The translations under genes and the position numbers were made by a program. Below are positions 32,335-45,062 of a stretch of 64,000 nt of DNA, piece after piece; the first letter of the stretch is position 1; each line of letters starts with the position of its first letter. Below the pieces are notes generated by a model. That model did not search any database. It saw only the letters and a program-made list of their open reading frames with translations, and was not told the origin of the DNA. The stretch comes from Nocardioides sp. GTDB lineage: Bacteria > Actinomycetota > Actinomycetes > Propionibacteriales > Nocardioidaceae. The stretch lies in contig JAFMQY010000001.1 of assembly GCA_017354415.1 (NCBI GenBank), forward strand, positions 28 to 64,027, read 5' to 3'.

Positions 32335-33261
32335 TCACGACACGAACGGCACGACCGCGACGGTCAGGAACAGCAGCGTCAGGTACAGGTTGGACAGGTG
32401 GAAAAGGCGCAAGGGCCGAAGTGTTGCGAGCTCGTCGGACGTCGACGCCCGGCGCAACAGCTGCCAGGACTCGCTCACGAGCACCGCACCGAGGACGAGC
32501 GCGACGCCCGGGTAGAGGACTCCGGTGCCAGCTACCGGCCACAGGAGCAGTGACGTCAGGAGCGTGACGATCGAGTATCCGAGGATCTGGCGGGCAACCG
32601 TACGGGTCGGTGCGACCGAGGGGAGCATGGGCACACCCGCGCTTGCGTAGTCCTCCCGGTAGCGGATCGCCAAGGCCCAGAAATGAGGGGGCGTCCAGAA
32701 GAAGACGACGAGGAAGAGCACGAACGGCGCCCACCCCAGGCTGCCGCGTACGGCGGTCCACCCGATGAGCGCGGGGAAGCATCCTGCGACACCGCCCCAG
32801 ACGATGTTCTGTGCGGTTCGCGGCTTGAGCAGGACCGTGTAGCCGACCACGTAGAACGCGTTGGCTGCCAGCGCCAGCGCCGCGGAGAGCCAGTTGACGA
32901 GGAGGCCGAGGACGAGGGTCGAGACGACCGCGAGCATCAGGCCGAAGACGAGCGCGTCGCGTCGGGATACCTGGTCGCGGGCCAGTGGACGTCTGCGTGT
33001 CCGGCGCATGCGAGCATCGATGTCGGCATCGACGACGCAGTTGAGCGCATTCGCACTGCCCGCCGACAGGCTGCCGCCGACCAGCGTGGCGACCACGAGT
33101 CCGAGCGGCGGTACGCCGTCTTGCGCCAGGAACATCACCGGCAGTGTCGTCAGCAGCAGCAGCTCGATGATGCGGGGCTTCATCAGGGCGACGTACGCCG
33201 CGACGAGTCCCCGCATGCTCACGACGCGCACGCCACCCTCGATCTTCAGCTCCGCTGTCAT
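32335..33261 (-). CDS. ctaB: Heme O synthase (protoheme IX farnesyltransferase)
   Basis: LMKPRII, DADIDARMRRTRRRP, FFWTPPHFWAL, DYASAGVPMLP. Confidence 0.95.
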   Translation of the reverse strand: MTAELKIEGGVRVVSMRGLVAAYVALMKPRIIELLLLTTLPVMFLAQDGVPPLGLVVATLVGGSLSAGSANALNCVVDADIDARMRRTRRRPLARDQVSRRDALVFGLMLAVVSTLVLGLLVNWLSAALALAANAFYVVGYTVLLKPRTAQNIVWGGVAGCFPALIGWTAVRGSLGWAPFVLFLVVFFWTPPHFWALAIRYREDYASAGVPMLPSVAPTRTVARQILGYSIVTLLTSLLLWPVAGTGVLYPGVALVLGAVLVSESWQLLRRASTSDELATLRPLRLFHLSNLYLTLLFLTVAVVPFVS

Positions 33262-33800
33262 GACGCCGCCTTCCTGAGAGCCTGGTGCAACATGTCGGGG
33301 CTCAGTGGCCCCACGACGCGAGCCACCACGATGCCGTCGGCGGTCACGATCAGCGCGCTGGGAATGCCGTTCTGCGGGAGCATCCGAAGCCCGCCGAGCA
33401 GGCGTCCGTCAGGGTCGTGGAGGCTCGGGTAGGTGACGCCGTGATCGTCGGCGAAGGCGAGGGCACGGCTGGCGCTGTCTCGCTCATCGATCCCGAGCAC
33501 CCGGACCCCCTGTCGGGCGGCCCGGGCGAGGAGAGGAAGCTCCTGACGGCACGGGTAGCACCAGGACGCCCAGACGTCGACGACGAGCGGCGACCCCGCG
33601 GCGTAGGACGACGCGGTCAAGCTCCGGCCCGACAGTGTGGTGCCCGCCAGTGCGGGCAGCCTGACACGGTCGCGGGGGGAGAAGACCGTGAGCCCCACCG
33701 TCGAGCCCGAGTGGCTCTGCCGACCAGCGCTCGAGCTGCACGAGGGTGCGAGGACGGCCAGGAGCCCCAGCATGAGGAGCACGGCAAGCGGCCTGATCAC
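33258..33800 (-). CDS. TlpA/ResA-like thiol-disulfide oxidoreductase, probable lipoprotein
   Basis: DVWASWCYPCRQELP. Signal peptide with Cys (LAPSC). Start GTG 33800 overlaps the SCO stop. Confidence 0.88.
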   Translation of the reverse strand: MIRPLAVLLMLGLLAVLAPSCSSSAGRQSHSGSTVGLTVFSPRDRVRLPALAGTTLSGRSLTASSYAAGSPLVVDVWASWCYPCRQELPLLARAARQGVRVLGIDERDSASRALAFADDHGVTYPSLHDPDGRLLGGLRMLPQNGIPSALIVTADGIVVARVVGPLSPDMLHQALRKAAS

Positions 33801-34549
33801 TGCGAACCGCCCCCCAGCATCCAGTCGAGCGCCTTGGTCACCTGGGCCGGCGTCCAGGCCCCGGAGTCCGGGGCCTGCGCGTTGCGGTGCCCGAGCCCGT
33901 CCATGAAGTGGAAGATGCGCTGGGGGATCCGCTGGGGCTTGACGCTCCCCGGACCCTCCATCTCGTACCGGTAATGCTGTGCGCCGTTGATGAAGACGAG
34001 CTCGTCGGTGTGCGCGATGTCCGTGGTCAGCGGACGGCCGGTCAGCCAGTCGGTCGGGTACGGCGGGTGCAGCCGGATCTGGTGACGCCAGACGCCCAGC
34101 CGCGACCACAGGCTGTTGACGACGGTGGGAGACCCGCGCAGCGCGGTCCAGTTGGCGAGCGCCCCGAACTGGTGTCGATAGGCACGCAGGTGGCGCAGGT
34201 CATCGCGTTGCGGGTCGATCGTCAGACTCACGAACTCCACGTCCTTGCCCACGCGCGTGCGGTCGACCTGCCGGGCTGCGGCCAGCATGCTCGCGGTCAC
34301 CAGGGGGCAGGTCTCCTGGCACAGGGTCATCACATCCGACAGGACGATGATCTTGCCGCGCCACTGGCCCAGCGTGACGTGATGACCGTTCTGGTCGACC
34401 AGGGGCGCGTCGAGGATCGTCTGCGGAACGGGCGCGTCGAGAACCGTGCCGAAGCCTGGCGCAGCCGGCGTGGCGGCCGCGTCCTCGTGGCCGGACGCTG
34501 CGCCGCATCCGGCCGTCGCAGCGGCCACTGCGGTGAGAAGCAGAGCCAA
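33797..34549 (-). CDS. SCO1/SenC family copper chaperone, lipoprotein
   Basis: TLCQETCPL (CxxxC), LTIDPQRD, DIAHTD His, lipobox TAGC. Start approximate. Confidence 0.88.
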   Translation of the reverse strand: MALLLTAVAAATAGCGAASGHEDAAATPAAPGFGTVLDAPVPQTILDAPLVDQNGHHVTLGQWRGKIIVLSDVMTLCQETCPLVTASMLAAARQVDRTRVGKDVEFVSLTIDPQRDDLRHLRAYRHQFGALANWTALRGSPTVVNSLWSRLGVWRHQIRLHPPYPTDWLTGRPLTTDIAHTDELVFINGAQHYRYEMEGPGSVKPQRIPQRIFHFMDGLGHRNAQAPDSGAWTPAQVTKALDWMLGGGSQ

Positions 34550-34591
34550 GACGATTCCGCGCAGTCGGCCAACGCTGTACGGTGATCCACC

Positions 34592-35452
34592 GTGCAGGAG
34601 GTCGGGTCGCTGCTGAGCGCGTGGGAACCCGCCCCGCTTCCGTGGCTCGGATGTCTCGTCTTCGCCCTGGTGTACGTCGCGGCCGCGCGCAGTGTGACCG
34701 CTCGGACGCCGACCCAGCCGTGGCCGGCGTCCCAGACCGTGTGCTGGCTGGCCGGGACGTTCATCGTGTGGGTCTCCCTGGTGGGTCCGCCCGGCGCCTG
34801 GGACGATGTCTACTTCTACGCGCACATGACCCAGCACATCCTGCTGACCAGTCTCGCCGCGCCGCTCCTGGTGCTCGGGGATCCGATCCTCCTGCTGGCG
34901 AGGTTCGGCAGACCCGACTGGCGTCGCCGTCGTCTGGTGCCGGTGCTGCGCAGTGACACCCTCCGGTTCCTGACCCACCCGGTGACGGGGTGGGTGGTGT
35001 TCGTCGGGGTGATGGGCCTGAGCCACATCCCGGCCGTGTACGACTTCGCCCTCGACCACCCGGCGGTGCACGACTACGTCGAGCACCCCCTCTACCTGGC
35101 GGCGGGGATGCTGTACTTCTACCCGCTGCTGGTGGCGACAGCGGGCCGGCAGGTGCGGCACTGGGTGCGCATCGTGTCGCTGTTCACCTCGATGGTGTTC
35201 ATGGCCTTCCTCGGGTTCTTCATCTTCGCCCTGCCGAGCGTCGCCTACCCGTTCTACGCCCACACCGACCGTCCGTTCTCACCCGGGCCGCTGGCCGACC
35301 AGCATGCGGCCGGCATCCTGATGTGGTCGGGGTCGATGGTCGTCAGTGTGGTGTGGCTGGTGGTGGCCGGCCACAACTGGCTGATGGCCGAGGAGCGGCG
35401 TACTGCGCGGGAAGCCGTGCGTGCGGCTGCCGGAACGGAGCCTGCCGTATGA
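34592..35452 (+). CDS. Cytochrome c oxidase assembly protein, CtaG (Caa3_CtaG) type
   Basis: FYAHMTQHILL...APLLVLG, HDYVEH, DQHAAGILMW. Confidence 0.88.
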   Translation: MQEVGSLLSAWEPAPLPWLGCLVFALVYVAAARSVTARTPTQPWPASQTVCWLAGTFIVWVSLVGPPGAWDDVYFYAHMTQHILLTSLAAPLLVLGDPILLLARFGRPDWRRRRLVPVLRSDTLRFLTHPVTGWVVFVGVMGLSHIPAVYDFALDHPAVHDYVEHPLYLAAGMLYFYPLLVATAGRQVRHWVRIVSLFTSMVFMAFLGFFIFALPSVAYPFYAHTDRPFSPGPLADQHAAGILMWSGSMVVSVVWLVVAGHNWLMAEERRTAREAVRAAAGTEPAV

Positions 35453-35793
35453 GCAGCTCGTCGCCCGGACCCACGTGGCGCTATCACGTCTTCTTCTCGT
35501 GCGCCGTCATCGTGTGCCTGGCGGCCGGCTGGTTCGAGCTGGGCCGCGCTCGAAGCGGTCGTGAGATCGCGTGGGTGTACACCTTCGAATGGCCGGCGTT
35601 CGCCGCGGTGTTCGTGTTCATGTGGTGGCGTGTGGTCGCGGACCGACCGACCCGCCGACCGGCGCCGCCGGGTGGCGGCACCGGCCGCGACGTGATCCCC
35701 GACGACGACCCGGGGCTGCGGGCCTGGCGGAACTACCTCGCAGAGCTGGAGCATGACGACGACGGCACAGACCGCGCACCGGGATCCGGCTGA
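35449..35793 (+). CDS. Conserved small membrane protein of unknown function
   Basis: GWFELGRARSG...WVYTFEWPAFA. ATGA coupling with ctaG. 3' end overlaps the coxC-like gene by 61 bp. Confidence 0.6.
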   Translation: MSSSSPGPTWRYHVFFSCAVIVCLAAGWFELGRARSGREIAWVYTFEWPAFAAVFVFMWWRVVADRPTRRPAPPGGGTGRDVIPDDDPGLRAWRNYLAELEHDDDGTDRAPGSG

Positions 35794-36404
35794 TCCTTGG
35801 CCAACGGGCAGCCGACCGTGCCGTTGGCGACCGAGATCGTCAGCGTGCCCACGAACGCCGCCACGCACACCCACGTGTACCAGATCCCCACGATCCGGAC
35901 GTGCCAGTCACGTGCGCCCCGATTGGCCCCGCGCTGCCGCCGGATCGCGATCCCGAGTCCCAGGAAGACTGTCAGGGCGAGGTGGAAGACATTGGCTGCT
36001 GTGATGATCCAGACCGCAGCGGAGTAGGCGTTGTCGCTGACCGTGAACGGGAACTGGTACATCTGGACGATGGTCAGCACCAGTGCCACGGCCATCCCCG
36101 CCACCGACACCGCCACGCCGTTTGCGAAGCTGCCGCGCAGCTGCGTCCAGTAGGCCAGCGCCGACAGCACCATCACCGCCGAGACGGTCCAGGGCCACCA
36201 GAGGGTGGCGACGCCGGTACCGCCGGGGTGGAACGAACCCTGGGTGTCGAGCGCACGCAGGTACAGGAAGCTGAACGAGAGCGCCGCGACGAACGCCGCA
36301 TCGGCCAGGATCAGCAGCAGTGCCCCGACCCGCCATCTCTCACCGAAGTCGTGAGGCTCCTCGGGTGCGAAGGCTTCCTTGTTGACCAGCGACTCGGTGC
36401 TCAT
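35733..36404 (-). CDS. Heme-copper oxidase subunit III-like (short, divergent)
   Basis: About 5 TM, YSAAVW...NVFHLAL...G, C-terminal WYTWV. ATGA coupling to subunit I. Confidence 0.75.
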   Translation of the reverse strand: MSTESLVNKEAFAPEEPHDFGERWRVGALLLILADAAFVAALSFSFLYLRALDTQGSFHPGGTGVATLWWPWTVSAVMVLSALAYWTQLRGSFANGVAVSVAGMAVALVLTIVQMYQFPFTVSDNAYSAAVWIITAANVFHLALTVFLGLGIAIRRQRGANRGARDWHVRIVGIWYTWVCVAAFVGTLTISVANGTVGCPLAKDQPDPGARSVPSSSCSSSAR

Positions 36405-38329
36405 GCCGGGGCTCCTGGAACGTCGGCTTCAGCCCCGGCCGACGCCGGCACTGGTTCGGGCTCTGACTCGGGGACCGGTTCCTCGCCGTACCCGTAGGCG
36501 TCCTCCGTGACAACCGGCAGGACTGCGAAGTTCTCCAGCGGGATCGGGTTCGGAACGGTCCACTCGAGCGTCTTGGCACCCCACGGGTTCATCGGCGCCA
36601 GGTCTCCGTGGCGCCAGGAGCTGATCACGTCGTACAGCAGGACCAGCATGCCGATGCCGATGCAGTAGGCGCCCAGCGTGGAGATCGTGTTGCCCGTGTG
36701 GAAGCTGGCGTCGTAGTGCACGACTCGGCGGGGCTGTCCTTGGAGGCCGACCATGAACATCCCGAGGAAGGTCACGTTGAAACCGATCTGCACGAGCCAG
36801 AAGGAGACGAACGCCGGAGTGTTGCCGAGCATCCGTCCTGTCATCTTGGGGAACCAGTAGCCCAGTGCCCCCATCGCTCCGGTCAGACCGGCTCCCATCA
36901 GGGTGTAGTGGAAGTGGGCGGTCACGAACATCGACCCGTGGAGCTGGTAGTCCAGCGGCACGTCCGACAGGTAGATGCCGGTGATGCCACCGATGATGAA
37001 GTTCCACAGCATGGCGTAGGTGCACATCATCGGGAAGGCGGTCCAGATGCGACCACGCCAGATCGTGCCCAGGATGACGAGGAACAGGCCGCCTGTGGGG
37101 ATGGAGATCATCTCCGTGGTGAGCATGAAGGGACCGTTCAGGTCCGGGGCCCAGCCGGAGGCGAACATGTGGTGGGCCCACACCGTCGCGCTGAGTCCGA
37201 CGATCGCGATGATCGAGAGCACGGCGATCCGGAAGCTGAACAGCGGCTTGCGCGCGAACACCGCTGTCAGCTCCATCAATGCGGTGACCGCGGGGATCAG
37301 GATGACGTAGACCTCCGGGTGGCCCATCAGCCAGAAGAGGTTCTGGTACAGCCAGGGCTGGCCACCTCGGTTGGGCACGTAGAAGCCGCCGCCCATGACC
37401 CGGTCGACGAAGAGCAGGAGCTCTGCGGCCATGAAGAACGGGAAGGCCGGCAGCGCGAGCACCACGCTGGCGAGCACGCCGTACACGAAGATGGGCGTGC
37501 GGGTCCACGTCATGCCGCGGGCTCGCATGGTCACGATCGTGGTCGTGATGTTCATGCCGGCCACGGCAGTGGAGACCGCGAACACCAGGATCGCCATCAT
37601 GTAGGCGTCGACTCCGGGAGGGCCCTGGTCGGCGATCGGTGTGTACCCGACCCAGCCCATCGGGATGCCGCCCAGGAAGGCCGCCGAGTACAGGATCGGG
37701 AGCATGGCCACGAGGAGCCAGAAGCTGAGTGCGTTGAGCCGCGGGAACGCCATGTCCCGGGCACCGATCATCAGCGGCACCACGAAGTTCCCGAACGGGC
37801 CGGTGACCATGATGATCGTCGCCAGGATCATGGTCAGGCCGTGCAGGCCGACCAGAGAGTTGTAGGTCTGGGGGCCCAGGAAGCCGCTGTTCGGCGAGAT
37901 GAGGTCCGTCCGGATCAGCATGGCCATGGATCCACCGGCTCCGAGCATCACCATCACCAACACGAGGTACTGGATGCCGACGACCTTGTGGTCGGTGGTG
38001 AAGCGGAAGTACCGACCGACTCCCTGGTCCTTGCCGGCGAGGAAGAGCTCGTCGGCGTGCGTGAGATCGCGTCCGACCAGCCACCGAAACGGGCCCGTGA
38101 AGGCACCCATGCCGAGCAGGAAGCCGACCGCCCAGCCGAACATGGTGAACACGGCACGCACGTCGGGCTCGTGGGTGTGTCCGTCCGCGAGCTTCTTCGC
38201 GAGGACGTTGGCGACGACCGCGAGGACGATGCCGGCGATGATTCCGGTGCCCACGTTGAGGCGCCGCATGATCCCGCCGTGCGGTGCGACCGGCGAGGGA
38301 TCGGTCTTGTAGATGTCCGCGGTTGTCAC
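36401..38329 (-). CDS. Heme-copper oxidase subunit I, A-type with atypical K-channel
   Basis: TTDHKVVG, LHG, DMAFPRLN, GHPEVY, WAHHMF, AHFHY, PRR. AGGAGA RBS before GTG 38329. Confidence 0.95.
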   Translation of the reverse strand: MTTADIYKTDPSPVAPHGGIMRRLNVGTGIIAGIVLAVVANVLAKKLADGHTHEPDVRAVFTMFGWAVGFLLGMGAFTGPFRWLVGRDLTHADELFLAGKDQGVGRYFRFTTDHKVVGIQYLVLVMVMLGAGGSMAMLIRTDLISPNSGFLGPQTYNSLVGLHGLTMILATIIMVTGPFGNFVVPLMIGARDMAFPRLNALSFWLLVAMLPILYSAAFLGGIPMGWVGYTPIADQGPPGVDAYMMAILVFAVSTAVAGMNITTTIVTMRARGMTWTRTPIFVYGVLASVVLALPAFPFFMAAELLLFVDRVMGGGFYVPNRGGQPWLYQNLFWLMGHPEVYVILIPAVTALMELTAVFARKPLFSFRIAVLSIIAIVGLSATVWAHHMFASGWAPDLNGPFMLTTEMISIPTGGLFLVILGTIWRGRIWTAFPMMCTYAMLWNFIIGGITGIYLSDVPLDYQLHGSMFVTAHFHYTLMGAGLTGAMGALGYWFPKMTGRMLGNTPAFVSFWLVQIGFNVTFLGMFMVGLQGQPRRVVHYDASFHTGNTISTLGAYCIGIGMLVLLYDVISSWRHGDLAPMNPWGAKTLEWTVPNPIPLENFAVLPVVTEDAYGYGEEPVPESEPEPVPASAGAEADVPGAPA

Positions 38330-38351
38330 GGCCTTGTCTCCTGTCGCTCGC

Positions 38352-39125
38352 TCATGCGTGACCTCCCTGCCCCGCGATCCATGTGTCGAAGTCGTCGGAT
38401 GTGACGACCCTCGCGTTGGTCTCCATGTCGGCATGGAGAAGCCCGCACAGCTCGGCGCACCGGACGTGGTACAGGCCGAGCCGGTCCGGGACGGTCGACG
38501 TCGAGGTGGTCACGCCGGGGTTGGCGTCGACCTTGATTCCCATCTCCGGCAGCCAGAACGAGTGGATGACGTCGTCACTGGTCACCTTGAAGACGACCGG
38601 CCGGTTGACCGGCAGGACCAGCTGGTCGGACTCGACTCCCTGCGAGGGGTAGCTGAACGTCCACACCCACTGCTGCCCGGTGACATCGATCTCGAGGGGG
38701 GTCGCCCCCGAGGCCGCGGCCGAGTCCACCTTGCTCAGAGCGGCGAGTCCCCAGATGAGAAGGAACAAGCAGAGCGCGGACGACAGGAAGATCCAGATGC
38801 CCGAGGTCATGCCGTGACCTCGCAGAGGGGGCCCGTCCGGGTCGCCCTCCTTCCAGGCGCCTCTCCGTCGCCAACGCATGAGGCTGTAGACAGCCAGCGC
38901 CCAGACGACCGCGGCAACGGGCGCCGACGCCACGGAGAACATGGTGAACGTGCGCTCGACCTCGGTCATCGTGTTGCTCGCCGAAGGTCCCATCAGGTGA
39001 TGCGGAACGATCAACGCGAAGATCACCCCGAGAACCGTGAAGATCGCCCACAGGATTGTGAGTGTCTTCAGCTCCTCGCTGCGTGACCGGCCTTGGCGAT
39101 CCGCCGGTGTCGTTTCGACCGACAC
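38352..39125 (-). CDS. Heme-copper oxidase subunit II with CuA site
   Basis: GQQWVWTFSY, DVIHSFW, CAELCGLLHADM. Three N-terminal hydrophobic segments. Confidence 0.93.
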   Translation of the reverse strand: MSVETTPADRQGRSRSEELKTLTILWAIFTVLGVIFALIVPHHLMGPSASNTMTEVERTFTMFSVASAPVAAVVWALAVYSLMRWRRRGAWKEGDPDGPPLRGHGMTSGIWIFLSSALCLFLLIWGLAALSKVDSAAASGATPLEIDVTGQQWVWTFSYPSQGVESDQLVLPVNRPVVFKVTSDDVIHSFWLPEMGIKVDANPGVTTSTSTVPDRLGLYHVRCAELCGLLHADMETNARVVTSDDFDTWIAGQGGHA

Positions 39126-39147: not shown

Positions 39148-39828
39148 TCAGGAGACGGTGAAGGTGCCCGACATGTAGCCGCGGGTCGACATGGGTCCGC
39201 CGAACTTGGCGTAGTAGCCGTCGCCGCACGGGAACTCGCAGTTCCAGATGTACTTGCCCGGGCCCTTGGTGTGGAACGAGAACGTGACCTCGATCGGCTT
39301 CGGGTAGTCGCTACCAGCAGCGATCGGCGCGTCGTCCGGTACGGCGGGCAGCGGCGCGCTCACGAACAGCGGATCCTGCGCGGTCGGTGCCGCGTGCAGC
39401 GTCCAGGTGTGTCCGACCGCCTCCGGGTCGATCTGCGTGACCGGCTTGCCGTCCACGGTCTCGGTGCCACCGACGGTGCCGTGCACCTTCGCGAACCACG
39501 GGTTCGTGATCGCCTCGCCGCCGTCGTACTGGCTGATCGTGATGGTCACCAGTGAATGCGCCGGCACGTTGATGTTGGTGCCCGGCCCGTAGCTGACCCA
39601 GTCCGGTTCAGCACCGCCGTCTTTGCCGTGCTCTCCGGCCATGCTGTCCGGGTACGTATCCAGATGGACGTAGACGTGGTGCTGCTCCGTGGCCGACGGC
39701 GGTGTCGCCGCCGTGACACGTGCCGCCACTGCTGGACTCAAGCTTTGATGCAACAGCAGGCCCAAGACCGTGACGAATGCCCCCCCAAGCAAGACAGTCA
39801 CGATCGGGCCGATGAGCTTCTTACCCAT
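39148..39828 (-). CDS. Membrane-anchored cupredoxin-fold protein, first gene of the oxidase operon
   Basis: N-terminal TM, VPAHSLVTITI beta strand, GHTW, and GKYIWNCEFPCG...GGPMSTRGYMSGTFTV cupredoxin-like C-terminal loop. Confidence 0.75.
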   Translation of the reverse strand: MGKKLIGPIVTVLLGGAFVTVLGLLLHQSLSPAVAARVTAATPPSATEQHHVYVHLDTYPDSMAGEHGKDGGAEPDWVSYGPGTNINVPAHSLVTITISQYDGGEAITNPWFAKVHGTVGGTETVDGKPVTQIDPEAVGHTWTLHAAPTAQDPLFVSAPLPAVPDDAPIAAGSDYPKPIEVTFSFHTKGPGKYIWNCEFPCGDGYYAKFGGPMSTRGYMSGTFTVS

Positions 39829-40484: not shown

Positions 40485-40583
40485 CGCGGCCGATCTCGAA
40501 TCGATCCGCCACTTGACCGGTCCCACCCCAAGGGTGGTTACACTGACGCGACTTTTGTGTCACGGGGGAAGTTTGGGGTGGCC

Positions 40584-41243
40584 ATGTCCCGCGATCGCGT
40601 CCTGGTGATCGACGACGAGCCTCGCGTCCTCCACTTCGTCTCGCGGGCGCTCCGTGCTGAGGGCGTTGACGTCGACAGCGCGGAGGGCGGTGAGGAGGGC
40701 TGTCGGCTGGCGCTCTCGCAGCCGTATCGACTGGTCATCCTCGATCTCGTCATGCCGGGGGTCGACGGGATGACCGTGCTGAAGCGGCTGCTGCACCACA
40801 AGCCGGATCAGGCCGTGCTGATCCTCTCGTGTCTGAGCGACACCAGCACCAAGGTGCGAGCGCTCGATCTGGGCGCGGCCGACTACCTGGGCAAGCCGTT
40901 CGCGCTCAACGAGCTGATGGCCCGGGTCCGCGTGAGGATGCGGGTACGCCACGACGGCTTCGTCCTGAGCGCCCATGACTTCGTCCTGGATCCCGTCCGC
41001 CACGAGGTCAAGACGCCCACCAAGACCGTGCTGCTGACCCGGACCGAGTCGGCTCTGCTGGGAGAGCTGATCCAGCACGCGGGCGAGAGCGTCTCGAAGG
41101 AGCGGCTCCTCTCGGAGGTGTGGGGCTACCAGTTCGACCCCGAGACCAACGTCGTGGACGTCTACGTCCGGCGGATTCGCAAGAAGCTCGGTGCGACAGC
41201 GATCTCAACGGTGCGAGGAGTTGGCTATGGCGTCGATCTCTGA
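40584..41243 (+). CDS. OmpR/PhoB family response regulator
   Basis: VIDDE, ILDLVMP, GAADYLGKPF, VWG...TNVVDVYVRRIRKKL, TVRGVGY. Confidence 0.94.
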   Translation: MSRDRVLVIDDEPRVLHFVSRALRAEGVDVDSAEGGEEGCRLALSQPYRLVILDLVMPGVDGMTVLKRLLHHKPDQAVLILSCLSDTSTKVRALDLGAADYLGKPFALNELMARVRVRMRVRHDGFVLSAHDFVLDPVRHEVKTPTKTVLLTRTESALLGELIQHAGESVSKERLLSEVWGYQFDPETNVVDVYVRRIRKKLGATAISTVRGVGYGVDL

Positions 41244-42282
41244 GGTGTCCATCAGCGCCCCGCGACGTACCGCTCTCGTCTGGCACCAGTACCGGGTCGA
41301 CATCCTGTGGTGGTGCTTCGTCGCGATCAACGCCTGGGCAATGCTCGTGCTCAGCGTGTGGGCCACGGTGCCGTTCCACTTCATCTGGATCGGTGTCTCG
41401 CTGATGTACGGCTGGCGCGTGTGGACCATGAGGGTCACCTTCGTCTCGCTGTCCGTGATCGTCGTGGTCACGGGGGCGATGCTGCTGGACGACGTCTTCC
41501 GGGGTACCCAGGCGCCCGACGAGCTCACGGAGATCCCGCTGATGGCGGCGGTCTTCCTCGTGATGGTGCACTACGTGCGGCGCAGCGCCGCCGCGCAGCA
41601 GGAGACCGCGCGGGTTGCGGCGCACAACCTCGCCCTGGTCGAGCAGAGCCGGACCCTTGTACAGAACGCCTCCCACGTGCTCCGCACGCCGCTCACCATC
41701 GCGCTGGGTCATGCCGAGCTCTTGGAGCGCACCGCCACCGGTCCCGAGACGGTCGATGACGCCCGCGTCGTCGTCGACGAGCTGAACCGGCTCACGAAGG
41801 TCACCGACCGTTTCCTGGGACTGGCCAAGAGCGAACAGCCCGACTTCCTCTCCCCGGTCGAGACTGCGGTCGGAGACCTGGTGATGCGTACGGCCACTCG
41901 ATGGATGGCCACGCATCCGCCCGTCAGCCTCGGTGTCGTGGTGAACGAGGTCATGTCGGTCGATCCCGACCGCCTGGCCGAGGCCATCGACGAGATGATC
42001 GGGAACGCCGTCGTCCACTGCCCTCCAGGCACGCCGGTCGAGGTCTCCGCAGGCCGGCGCGCCGGCCGGTATGTGATCTCGGTGGCGGACCGCGGCGCGG
42101 GGATCCCGGCCTCGATGACGGCGTCCGTCTTCGAGCGTTTCAGCCACGGGACCGGCACCAGCCGTCGCGGAGCTGGCCTGGGGCTCGCCATCGTCAAGGC
42201 GATCACCGAGGGGCACGGTGGCACGGTCAGGGTCCGCAGTCGTGAAGGGGGAGGCACGGTCCTGGAGATGGCGCTGCCCTGA
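41227..42282 (+). CDS. Membrane sensor histidine kinase (HisKA-HATPase)
   Basis: About 5 TM, H-box SHVLRTP, N-box GNAV, DRGAGI, GAGLGL. Confidence 0.92.
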   Translation: MASISEVSISAPRRTALVWHQYRVDILWWCFVAINAWAMLVLSVWATVPFHFIWIGVSLMYGWRVWTMRVTFVSLSVIVVVTGAMLLDDVFRGTQAPDELTEIPLMAAVFLVMVHYVRRSAAAQQETARVAAHNLALVEQSRTLVQNASHVLRTPLTIALGHAELLERTATGPETVDDARVVVDELNRLTKVTDRFLGLAKSEQPDFLSPVETAVGDLVMRTATRWMATHPPVSLGVVVNEVMSVDPDRLAEAIDEMIGNAVVHCPPGTPVEVSAGRRAGRYVISVADRGAGIPASMTASVFERFSHGTGTSRRGAGLGLAIVKAITEGHGGTVRVRSREGGGTVLEMALP

Positions 42283-42605: not shown

Positions 42606-45062
42606 ATGCAGCGCGTGGACCGGATCGCAGCCCCATGGGGGACGCGGACGCCGTACGGCAGAGGGGAGACGTGGCCGGAGCGCCGCGACCTCTACCTGGC
42701 CGACGGACTCGCGGAGGCCGAGGTCGACAGATGGGTTCAAACCGCCTCCGTTCTGCACTCGAACGGAGACGCCATGGACATCGCCGTCAAGGACGAGCGG
42801 ATCGTGGGTGTCCGCGGACGCGCTGAGGATCGGGTCAACCGCGGTCGGCTGGGCCCGAAGGATCTCTTCGGGTGGCAGGCGAACCACTCGCCCGACCGGT
42901 TGACGACACCGCAGGTCCGTCGTGGGGGTGAGCTGGTCGAGACCGACTGGGACACCGCTCTGGAGGAAGTTGCGGGACGTACTCGCGACCTGCTGGCCGA
43001 GCGCGGGCCGGGCTCGATCGGGTTCTACACGACGGGACAACTCTTCCTCGAGGAGTACTACACGCTGGCGCTGATCGCGCGGGGCGGCATCGGGACCAAC
43101 CACGTCGATGGCAACACACGCCTGTGCACCGCGACCGCGGGCGAGGCCCTCAAGGAGTCCTTCGGATCGGATGGTCAGCCCGGCTCCTACTCCGACATCG
43201 ACCATGCCGACGTCATCTGCCTGTATGGCCACAACGCCGCGGAGACGCAAACGGTTCTGTGGTGCCGGATCCTCGATCGGCTCGCCGGATCGAATCCGCC
43301 CGAGGTCGTCTGCGTCGACCCGCGACGTACGCCGGTCGCCGAGCACGCCACGCTGCACCTGGCGCCACGGCCCGGCACCCATGTGGTGTTGATGAACTCA
43401 CTGCTCCACGAGCTCGTCGAGCAGGACTGGGTTGACCACGAGTACGTCGCGCAGCACACCGTCGGCTTCGACGAGCTGGCGACGTCGGTGGCGGCGTACT
43501 CGCCGGAGCGAGCCGCGGAGGCCTGCGACGTGCCGGTGGCGCAGATCCGCGAGGCGGCGAGCCTGATCGGGAACGCCGATCGCCTGGTCTCCACGGTGCT
43601 GCAGGGCTTCTACCAGTCGCACCAGGCGACCGCGGCCGCCGTCCAGGTCAACAACGTCCACCTCGTCCGCGGGATGATCGGCAGACCCGGATGCGGCGTC
43701 CTGCAGATGAACGGCCAGCCCACGGCTCAGAACACCCGCGAGTGTGGTGCCGATGGCGACCTGCCCGGGTTCCGCAACTGGGCCAACGACCAGCATGTGC
43801 GCGACCTCGCCCGGGTCTGGAACGTGGAGCCGTCGCACATCCCGCACTACGCGCCGTCCACGCACCTCATGCAGATGCTGCGATACGTCGAACAGGGCTC
43901 GATCCGTTTCCTGTACGTGTCGGGCACCAACCCGGCCGTCTCGCTGCCGGAGCTGAGCCGGATCCGGTCGGTTCTAGCACAGGACCGGCTGTTCCTCGTG
44001 GTCCAGGACATCTTCCCCACGGAGACCACCCAGCTGGCCGACGTCGTGCTGCCGGCGGCCACATGGGGCGAGAAGACAGGGACCTTCACCAACGCCGACC
44101 GCACTGTCCACCTCTCGGAGAAAGCGGTCGAGCCGCCGGGAGAGGCACGCTCGGACCTCGAGATCTTCCTCGACTACGCCCGTCGCCTCGATCTGACCGA
44201 CCGCGAGGGTGCACCTCTCGTTCCGTGGAAAGACGCCGAGGGCGCGTTCGAGGGCTGGAAGGCGTGCAGCCGAGGTCGTCCGTGCGACTACTCGGGCTTG
44301 ACCTACGACATGTTGCGTGGGAACAGCGGCATCCAGTGGCCGTGTGATGACCAGAACCCCGCGGGGACCGAACGGCTGTACGCGGGCGGCCGGTTCCGCA
44401 GCAGCCCGGACGACTGCGAGAGCTATGGCAAGGACCTGGTCACGGGGGCGTCGGTCGAGCCGACGGAGTACCAGGCGATGAACCCGGCCGGAAAGGCGAT
44501 CATCAAGGCGGCCGAGTTCCTCACGCCGCACGAGGTACCGTCCGACGCGTACCCGTTCCACCTGATCACCGGACGGACGATCTACCACTTCCACACGCGC
44601 ACCAAGACGGCTCGGGCCGCGCAGCTGCAGGCAGCCGCTCCCGACGTGTGGGTCGAGGCGTCGCACGAGGATGCCGCGGCCCACGGCTGGTCCGAAGGCG
44701 ACCTCCTCGAGGTGACCACGCTCCGCAGCGCCGTCCGGGCACGGCTGCGGGTCAGCGGAGTACGACGCGGTGTGCTGTTCGTCCCGTTCCACTACGGCTA
44801 CTGGGACGCCGGTGAGCCCAGGCCCGACGGACCGGGTCGAGCCGCGAACGAGTTGACGTCGACCGCCTGGGATCCGGTGTCCAAGCAGCCACTGTTCAAG
44901 ACGGCCGCCGCCAAGGCCGAGGTGGTCCAGAAGTCCGACGGCGTTCCGTCACCGGCTCCGCGGATCGCCGCGTCGAGACCGGTCACCGGCGAACAGGACA
45001 CGCGGGGCGGTGACCCGGCGATGGTGACCGAGGACTTCGAGAGCACGGGAGGTGTCCGATGA
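42606..45062 (+). CDS. Molybdopterin (bis-MGD) oxidoreductase, NasA/NarB-like but lacking Fe-S cysteines
   Basis: DRLTTP, NTRLCTATA, LPAATWGEKTGTFTNADRT, TGRTIYHFHTRTKT, FVPFHY, PVSKQPLFK. Confidence 0.9.
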   Translation: MQRVDRIAAPWGTRTPYGRGETWPERRDLYLADGLAEAEVDRWVQTASVLHSNGDAMDIAVKDERIVGVRGRAEDRVNRGRLGPKDLFGWQANHSPDRLTTPQVRRGGELVETDWDTALEEVAGRTRDLLAERGPGSIGFYTTGQLFLEEYYTLALIARGGIGTNHVDGNTRLCTATAGEALKESFGSDGQPGSYSDIDHADVICLYGHNAAETQTVLWCRILDRLAGSNPPEVVCVDPRRTPVAEHATLHLAPRPGTHVVLMNSLLHELVEQDWVDHEYVAQHTVGFDELATSVAAYSPERAAEACDVPVAQIREAASLIGNADRLVSTVLQGFYQSHQATAAAVQVNNVHLVRGMIGRPGCGVLQMNGQPTAQNTRECGADGDLPGFRNWANDQHVRDLARVWNVEPSHIPHYAPSTHLMQMLRYVEQGSIRFLYVSGTNPAVSLPELSRIRSVLAQDRLFLVVQDIFPTETTQLADVVLPAATWGEKTGTFTNADRTVHLSEKAVEPPGEARSDLEIFLDYARRLDLTDREGAPLVPWKDAEGAFEGWKACSRGRPCDYSGLTYDMLRGNSGIQWPCDDQNPAGTERLYAGGRFRSSPDDCESYGKDLVTGASVEPTEYQAMNPAGKAIIKAAEFLTPHEVPSDAYPFHLITGRTIYHFHTRTKTARAAQLQAAAPDVWVEASHEDAAAHGWSEGDLLEVTTLRSAVRARLRVSGVRRGVLFVPFHYGYWDAGEPRPDGPGRAANELTSTAWDPVSKQPLFKTAAAKAEVVQKSDGVPSPAPRIAASRPVTGEQDTRGGDPAMVTEDFESTGGVR

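Follow-up and report, generated by a model that had tools for sequence, protein, structure and literature searches.

An accessory A-family haem-copper oxidase without the K-channel lysine in a Nocardioides genome

A compact oxidase operon lies in the genome of a Nocardioides species (NCBI GenBank assembly GCA_017354415.1, contig JAFMQY010000001.1), within a window of 64,000 nucleotides, the whole stretch of DNA that was analysed. It occupies the minus strand of the window in the order cupredoxin-like gene, coxB, coxA and a coxC-like gene. The coxA gene (36401..38329, minus strand) encodes a haem-copper oxidase subunit I of the A family with 642 amino acids. It scores 397 bits against Pfam COX1 (cut-off 34.8), 528 against TIGR02891 CtaD_CoxA (cut-off 670.75) and 417 against NCBIfam cyt_aa3_Actin, for which the equivalog cut-off is 880. 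Translation starts at the GTG at 38329, since 102 of 120 homologue N-termini align there and an AGGAGA ribosome-binding site (38337-38342) lies seven bases upstream; a start at the ATG at 38434, implied by the coordinates of an earlier note made on this DNA from its letters, is not borne out. The coxB gene (38352..39125, minus strand) encodes a subunit II of 257 amino acids with two transmembrane (TM) helices and a CuA cupredoxin domain, lacking a cytochrome c domain. It passes TIGR02866 (CoxB; 162.6 bits against a cut-off of 147.7) and also matches Pfam COX2. The last gene (35733..36404, minus strand) overlaps coxA by 4 nucleotides, is translationally coupled to it and encodes a subunit III-like membrane protein of 223 amino acids. 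A Pfam scan gave no match for this protein; the gene at the same position in two distant genomes that carry the operon (L003 and L004) has a weak match to Pfam COX3.

Bovine numbering was taken from a MAFFT alignment of CoxA to a bovine COX1 reference that is identical to PDB 1occ_A at 514 of 514 positions. In this alignment CoxA keeps H61, N80, D91, N98, S101, H240, E242, Y244, H290, H291, H376, H378, R438 and R439. All six histidine ligands are among them, H61 and H378 for haem a, H376 for haem a3 and H240, H290 and H291 for CuB. The D-channel set D91, N80, N98, S101 and Y19 is complete, with the entry residues N80 (N181 in CoxA), D91 (D192) and N98 (N199) encoded at 37733..37789 on the minus strand. 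H240, E242 and Y244 lie in the TM6 stretch HPEVY...ALME (37271..37321, minus strand), with HPEVY of the A1 type. The alignment bears out the earlier note in listing N80, D91, N98, HPEVY, the six histidines and PRR (R438/R439) as present.

The changed positions are S255 (Met352 in CoxA), M310 (Glu406), A313 (Ser409), K319 (Leu415) and D369 (Gly465). The site of K319 reads IPTGGLFL in CoxA and IPTGVKVF in the bovine protein, within a TM8 segment T-E406-M-I-S409-I-P-T412-G-G-L415 (37085..37114, minus strand) in which T316 is kept as T412. HMMER alignments place the same motif, IPTGGL, opposite IPTGVK of the Thermus caa3 oxidase (2yev_A) and IPTGIK of Mycobacterium smegmatis CtaD, so that the lysine-to-leucine register is the same. 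They also set LHG against FHD and VTD at the Mg/Mn-site dipeptide (36935..36940, minus strand), where H368 is kept and D369 is Gly465 (LHG for LHD). The earlier note had read all of these by eye, namely Leu at 319, a Glu at 310, Met at 255 and HG for HD at the Mg site, and each reading holds. It had also called K319 normally invariant. Lysine is indeed the usual residue, but strict invariance in the A family fails, as there are published exceptions. A further acidic residue in TM6, Glu353 at bovine position 256, was considered as a compensating gain and rejected. The Thermus and Mycobacterium enzymes and the canonical CtaD of the same genome all carry it, and Table S3 of PMC8239418 lists Glu at Paracoccus position 292 in most bacterial A-type oxidases. 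It is thus the usual bacterial residue and no compensating gain.

In CoxB the motif GMTSGIW aligns to LPLEIFY of the canonical CtaC of the same genome, and the glutamate at the K-channel entry is therefore replaced by Ser108 (38802-38804). This agrees with the earlier note, which had found no entry glutamate in subunit II. The CuA ligands are intact (DVIHSFW and CAELCGLLHADM), the pattern H...C-x-E-x-C-x3-H-x2-M being complete, and two TM helices precede them. Within the canonical K-channel set K319 is thus Leu, S255 is Met and E62 of subunit II is Ser, and T316 is the sole survivor. CoxA differs from canonical enzymes at its N-terminus as well. Two extra TM segments (residues 26-44 and 59-77; 38099..38254, minus strand; Kyte-Doolittle 19-residue windows of 2.31 and 1.75) stand ahead of the normal TM1, with about 110 residues before TTDHK compared with about 28 in canonical CtaD. 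The extension is conserved in every full-length CoxA homologue.

These substitutions are shared by a whole family. A search of about 5.8 billion proteins yielded 120 CoxA homologues of 65-93% identity, from metagenome-assembled genomes (MAGs) of Actinomycetota labelled Nocardioidaceae, Pseudonocardiales, Frankiales, Acidimicrobiales and others. Position 319 is Leu in 110 of them, Ile in seven, Val in two and Ala in one, and Lys in none. Position 255 is Met or Leu, uniformly hydrophobic. The entry position of CoxB is never acidic (T83 S18 V11 A5 N2 I1), while the CuA motif is kept. In contrast, E310, S313, T316, V322 and G369 are each found in 120/120, and D91, N80, N98, E242, Y244 and all histidine ligands in 119 or 120 (H61 is absent from one truncated sequence); the whole D-channel set is present at the same level. 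In every family member the proton path of K319, S255 and Glu62 of subunit II is replaced by non-protonatable residues. The loss in both subunits, which the earlier note had called concerted, is evolutionarily fixed, and the combination of PTGxL with E310 that it proposed to look for in homologues is what the family carries. Close homologues retaining K319, named there as the sign of decay in a single strain, were not seen. The K-less oxidase, as judged from these alignments, reads as a fixed design and not as strain-specific erosion.

A scan for residues that are invariant in the family yet rare in K-bearing oxidases returned, beyond E310, S313 and G369, the changes H233N, N360D, Y371M, V380T, H429F, L342Y and L347N, each in at least 117 of the 120. 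The first five correspond to N330, D456, M467, T476 and F525 of CoxA and, together with D369G, amount to a remodelling of the Mg-site region on the positive side (P-side) of the membrane. Asp occupies position 369 in 63 of 73 K-bearing representatives, against Gly throughout the K-less family. The Asp gained at residue 456 might serve as an alternative metal ligand or belong to a proton exit. L342Y and L347N, with Tyr in 119/120 and Asn in 120/120, give TM9 two additional polar residues.

The wider distribution of these residues was followed in a site table of representatives drawn from a search of 1.84 billion representative sequences. Of the 45 K-less representatives 18 have Glu310, as against none of the 63 with Lys319. 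Ser313 and Gly369 travel with it, and the trio marks two supported K-less clades and never stands alongside Lys319. The tree was built after the trait columns had been removed, and the sequences named in the published work on this lineage were left out of it. The clade of the query has 12 representatives and full support (Shimodaira-Hasegawa-like approximate likelihood ratio test, SH-aLRT, 100), with E310 in 11/12 and Lys319 in 0/12. The second K-less clade, also of 12 members, carries an E-x-x-S motif, with S313 in 11 (one has Thr), E310 in seven and T316 changed to Phe in eight; its Mg-site dipeptide is RG, NG or HG. The two E310-bearing clades share one unresolved node. A phylogenetically independent-pairs test of E310, S313 and G369 against loss of the lysine found only three supported pairs and was without power.

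Two further channel variants appear among the sequences compared. In one K-less sub-branch D91 is replaced by Arg (L008, L009, L010, L011, L012, L014, L018, L058 and L091, which are COX1 genes of Solirubrobacterales, Gaiellaceae and Acidimicrobiaceae MAGs, and representatives P0288, P0318 and P0381). It keeps E242, Y244, E310, S313, T316 and the HG dipeptide, and its oxidases would lack both canonical channel entrances. A separate A-type clade of COX1-COX3 fusions of about 840 amino acids (P0253, P0276, P0281, P0284 and others) has Gln in place of Lys319, keeps Asp369 and mostly has Met310; it is another natural variant of the K-channel.

The lineage to which CoxA belongs has been described before. 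Degli Esposti et al. (bioRxiv 10.1101/2020.03.01.968255; Front Microbiol 2021, PMC8239418) report a deep-branching group of A-family COX1 with two extra N-terminal TM helices and the HPEVY motif. In this 2TM group Paracoccus K354 is replaced by a hydrophobic residue (Leu/Ile/Val), S291 by Met and E78 of COX2 by a non-acidic residue, and the D-channel is kept. The oxidase goes together with genes for caa3_CtaG and TlpA and, immediately ahead of COX2, one for a membrane cupredoxin (PMC8239418; 10.1101/2020.03.01.968255). The authors concluded that the K-channel is probably non-functional while the D-channel is retained (10.1101/2020.03.01.968255; PMC8239418 Tables S1 and S3), and PMC8239418 still classes these enzymes in family A. 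Its Table S1 names a subclade '2TM Chloroflexi & Actinobacteria', and a Pseudonocardiales entry in Table S3 (Y M L T I E ... COX2 T) has the residue pattern of CoxA and CoxB. The operon in the window shares the extra helices, the substitutions at Leu415 and Ser108, the placement in a K-less clade and the gene cluster, with a Caa3_CtaG match of 185 bits and a TlpA/DsbE-like gene; the cupredoxin fold of the first gene product has weak support. By these features the oxidase is an intact member of the published 2TM K-less lineage, a lineage known from sequence comparisons, from which it shows no essential difference. The novelty implied by the earlier note does not stand, since both the clade and its missing K-channel are in PMC8239418. 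What is added here are the clade markers E310, S313 and G369, the remodelling of the Mg site and the accessory distribution. In the tables and text of the two papers examined (PMC8239418; 10.1101/2020.03.01.968255) Glu310/Ser313, Gly369 and the other P-side changes are not mentioned.

An enzyme with measured activity stands near this lineage. The aa3 oxidase of the rus operon of Acidithiobacillus ferrooxidans has been measured as an active cytochrome c oxidase, and its gene cluster also encodes AcoP, the cupredoxin that partners it (PMC4059628); it is listed as K-less in the table of PMC8239418. It resembles CoxA/CoxB in belonging to the A family, in the hydrophobic residue at the K-channel lysine, in the loss of the COX2 entry Glu and in a membrane cupredoxin gene directly before coxB, a kinship that is drawn from the literature and not from a direct sequence comparison. 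Its host is an acidophilic iron-oxidising proteobacterium, whereas the operon described here belongs to a neutrophilic-type actinobacterium and, unlike the rus operon, has no cyc1, cyc2 or rusticyanin genes. A scan of the genome collection returned at least about 16 K-less relatives among the matches listed, most matches being canonical COX1, and no Acidithiobacillus or Sulfobacillus sequence among the matches listed.

The canonical actinobacterial CtaD/CtaC, represented by M. smegmatis (PDB 6adq/7rh5) and by the copy in the same genome, is about 40% identical to the oxidase of the window. Both have the ligands, the D-channel, Glu256 and a CuA subunit II that lacks a cytochrome c domain. The canonical enzyme alone has PTG(V/I)K, Ser255, the CtaC entry Glu and Asp369, and it lacks the N-terminal extension. 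It is encoded by dispersed genes and works within a bcc-aa3 supercomplex in the mycobacterial structures that have been solved. In the genome of the window the canonical proteins read PTGVK and LPLEIF (contig C19).

The K-less oxidase is rare and always met together with this canonical enzyme. Seven of the 151 genomes sampled within the class have it, and it is absent from all three congeners and from the sister-genus genomes examined. A canonical K-bearing COX1 is co-encoded in the window's own genome and in all six other carriers, and the K-less oxidase is thus accessory to canonical aa3. Named carriers among the matches listed are Ca. Nanopelagicaceae, Solirubrobacterales, Gaiellaceae and Acidimicrobiales. 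Two streamlined freshwater actinobacterial genomes, one of 1.4 Mb on a single contig from the same class (G139) and one of Ca. Nanopelagicaceae (L005), keep canonical aa3 and a K-less oxidase (61-64% identical). That such genomes retain both oxidases argues for a distinct, selected role of the K-less enzyme.

By their residues, CoxA and CoxB have everything needed for O2 reduction and for proton uptake through the D-channel, and nothing protonatable at positions 255, 319 and 322 or at the subunit II entry. The oxidase is accordingly read here, with a confidence slightly on the favourable side of even, as an intact accessory aa3-type O2 reductase of the A family that would be fed through the D-channel, with E310/S313 acting as a local relay. 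Electrons would enter at CuA, possibly from the membrane-anchored cupredoxin-like protein or with its help, and O2 would be reduced at the haem a3-CuB-Tyr site. All substrate and pumped protons, in both half-cycles, would enter by the D-channel through Glu242 (Glu339 in CoxA). By helix register the Glu310-Ser313 pair should sit one or two helical turns over Thr316, roughly level with the binuclear centre. There it may act as local proton donor and compensate charge while the centre is reduced, as Lys319 does in canonical enzymes. The changes around the Mg site (D369G, N360D, Y371M, H233N and H429F) suggest a modified exit for protons or water. A local role of the pair, and not one in conduction from below, is favoured because the second K-less clade largely retains Ser313 and in part Glu310 while most of its members have lost Thr316 to Phe. 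Rewired proton delivery had been the inference of the earlier note. It is a reasonable reading, because the losses are concerted and fixed and the D-channel and active site are intact, but it was already published for the lineage (10.1101/2020.03.01.968255; PMC8239418).

Several points weigh against this reading. Where Glu310 lies with respect to Tyr244, CuB and Glu242 is read from helix register only, and an ideal helix puts residue 310 about 180 degrees from residue 319. As applied to the actinobacterial enzymes, the model is a prediction with respect to activity, expression and proton pumping. The association of E310 with loss of the lysine is real but may rest on one or two evolutionary events. 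As the node shared by the two clades leaves a single origin possible, the contrast between K-less and K-bearing representatives is not independent evidence. Other K-less lineages have no E310, and it is gone from five of the 12 second-clade members, so K-less oxidases do not in general require the residue. Finally, the relatives with Arg at D91 show that some members of the lineage must take up protons elsewhere, and a model with the D-channel as sole entry is the weaker for it when applied to the whole lineage.

A stronger form of the proposal is put forward tentatively and is rather improbable. It holds that the invariant Glu310-Ser313 pair, together with the loss of Asp369 at the Mg site, would functionally substitute for the K-channel lysine, and that every proton, including those of the reductive half-cycle, would arrive by the D-channel. 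No prior proposal of the pair as a substitute for the lysine was found in the literature examined. If true, there would be natural A-family enzymes working by the D-channel only, which would contradict the textbook account of how the two channels share the work.

The main rival to the D-channel and relay model is a working analogue of the K-path that needs no lysine. Protons would pass Y342 and N347 on TM9 and T316, S313 and E310 on TM8, from a new entrance replacing Glu62 of subunit II. It has in its favour that all five residues are polar and invariant or nearly so across the family and that relatives lacking D91 need some route other than the D-channel. There is also precedent in the B family (ba3) and the related nitric oxide reductase (NOR) families, whose K-type channels deliver protons to the Tyr and the binuclear centre in the absence of a lysine, with a conserved Glu in that region of sNOR (PMC11214002). 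Those enzymes are the opposite of the oxidase described here, however. They have no D-channel and depend on the K-type channel as sole input, whereas CoxA has an intact D-channel and has lost the K residues; PDB chains of ba3 match CoxA only at an E-value of about 1e-4. The middle of the path, with hydrophobic residues at 319, 322 (Val) and 255, has no obvious carrier, and at its foot the CoxB position offers no acidic residue in any homologue. N347 is not unusual, as canonical actinobacterial CtaD has Thr there, and the proximity of TM9 to TM8 is presumed. The second K-less clade keeps E310 and S313 yet mostly replaces T316, the step below them. On balance this route is possible but not probable.

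A different chemistry or stoichiometry, with the protein acting as an NO reductase, a peroxidase-like enzyme or a non-pumping oxidase that takes substrate protons from the P-side, looks unlikely. The remodelled Mg-site region would suit such a change, with D369G and its four companions N360D, Y371M, H233N and H429F all near-invariant, and a Glu buried close to the binuclear centre, as predicted for position 310, would be reminiscent of the glutamates of NOR. Against this stand the invariant HPEVY motif with its Tyr, the three CuB histidines, E242 and the complete D-channel. The hallmark of NOR families (cNOR, qNOR, eNOR, sNOR and gNOR), loss of the cross-linked Tyr or altered CuB/FeB ligands or both, is absent from CoxA, unlike the published NOR families in which the Tyr is missing (PMC11214002). 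CuA and the genes for haem A/O and copper assembly accompany the oxidase, and O2-dependent oxidation of cytochrome c is documented for a K-less relative (PMC4059628). Because the Tyr, CuB and CuA sites are invariant, the different substrate suggested by the earlier note finds no support.

A channel of the cbb3 type (K^C) along TM6 and TM7 is very improbable. The idea comes from Table S3 of PMC8239418, where the entry PZS18933 (Y M L T I E G A S S, COX2 T), a Pseudonocardiales member of this subclade, is labelled 'KC-channel', and CoxA has Ser at both of the helix VII positions behind the label (bovine 276 and 284). Position 276 varies in the family, however (S48 A42 G30), the genome's canonical CtaD has Ser284 too, and CoxA lacks the defining His and Tyr of the cbb3 channel. 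Since one position varies and the other is shared, the label is unsupported here, and the designation 'KC, hybrid or modified' is not backed by conservation in this family.

Strain-specific decay of a redundant paralogue, for which the canonical aa3 in the same genome and the absence of the gene from three congeneric genomes might be cited, is effectively refuted by family-wide conservation: the open reading frames are intact and have ribosome-binding sites, ligands and variant residues alike are invariant across the homologues, the operon is conserved in distant genomes and a 1.4-Mb streamlined genome retains the oxidase. The word 'eroded' in the earlier note does not fit, in the sense of decay, a gene that is conserved in 120 homologues and belongs to a complete operon accompanied by dedicated assembly genes.

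The K-channel lysine counts as indispensable for active-site reduction in model A-type oxidases. A natural K-less lineage, in which at least the Acidithiobacillus enzyme turns over, is a ready-made test of this rule, and canonical and K-less enzymes in one genome make comparative biochemistry possible in a single host background. The comparison also supplies candidate compensating residues, E406, S409, N443, Y438, D456 and G465 of CoxA. Even a genome of 1.4 Mb pairs the K-less oxidase with a canonical aa3, and the constancy of this pairing suggests that the K-less enzyme has a specialised role in physiology.

The first gene of the operon (39148..39828, minus strand) encodes a membrane-anchored, cupredoxin-like protein of 226 amino acids, which has no match in Pfam or NCBIfam. 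In an alignment of 35 sequences its invariant residues are H51, H67, H140, H145, C197-E-F-P-C201-G-D-G, M213 and M219. The C197-x3-C201 motif resembles the Cys pair of a CuA-like site lacking the following His. An AlphaFold2 (AF2) model from the 35-sequence alignment has a predicted local distance difference test score (pLDDT) of 74, compared with 41 from the single sequence. Foldseek searches with this model gave weak matches to cupredoxin folds (the CuA domain of NosZ, laccases and amicyanin), none at E <= 1e-3. The gene holds the same operon position in L003 and L004, which is also that of the 'cup'/AcoP gene in the rus operon, and its product may donate electrons to the oxidase or be a partner of it. 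Its pattern, C-x3-C...M...M, differs from the H/C/H/M site of AcoP.

Flanking the operon are genes matching Pfam and NCBIfam profiles of the assembly factors CtaG, SCO1, TlpA and CtaB. A caa3-type CtaG, a CuB assembly factor, is encoded on the plus strand (34592..35452; Pfam Caa3_CtaG) and is followed directly by a small membrane protein of about 115 amino acids (35449-35793, plus strand). Translational coupling of caa3_CtaG to a membrane protein of about 115-120 amino acids that matches no family is seen in all three genomes compared, that of the window and those of L003 (4034-4396) and L004 (3325-3684). On the minus strand lie genes for a SCO1/SenC copper chaperone with a CQETC motif (33797..34570; Pfam SCO1-SenC, 54.9 bits), for a TlpA/DsbE-like thiol:disulfide oxidoreductase for reduction of the CuA site (33258..34109; Pfam AhpC-TSA and Redoxin, NCBIfam DsbE and TlpA), and for the haem O synthase CtaB (32335..33261; NF003349, 424.9 bits against a cut-off of 246). 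The true start of the TlpA/DsbE-like gene is probably internal to the open reading frame. A haem A synthase gene is also encoded in the genome. The arrangement is kept in L003 and L004, where genes for the cupredoxin-like protein, COX2, COX1 and a COX3-like protein stand together, with CtaG and its 120-amino acid companion, SCO1, TlpA and CtaB nearby.

Upstream, an OmpR-type response regulator and a HisKA/HATPase histidine kinase are encoded on the plus strand (40557-42282), divergent from the oxidase operon, whose start is about 0.7 kb away. L004 likewise has a response regulator and a kinase within a few kilobases of its operon, and the pair in the window may regulate the oxidase genes. Adjoining this two-component system is a gene for a molybdopterin oxidoreductase (42606-45062, plus strand; Pfam Molybdopterin and Molydop_binding).

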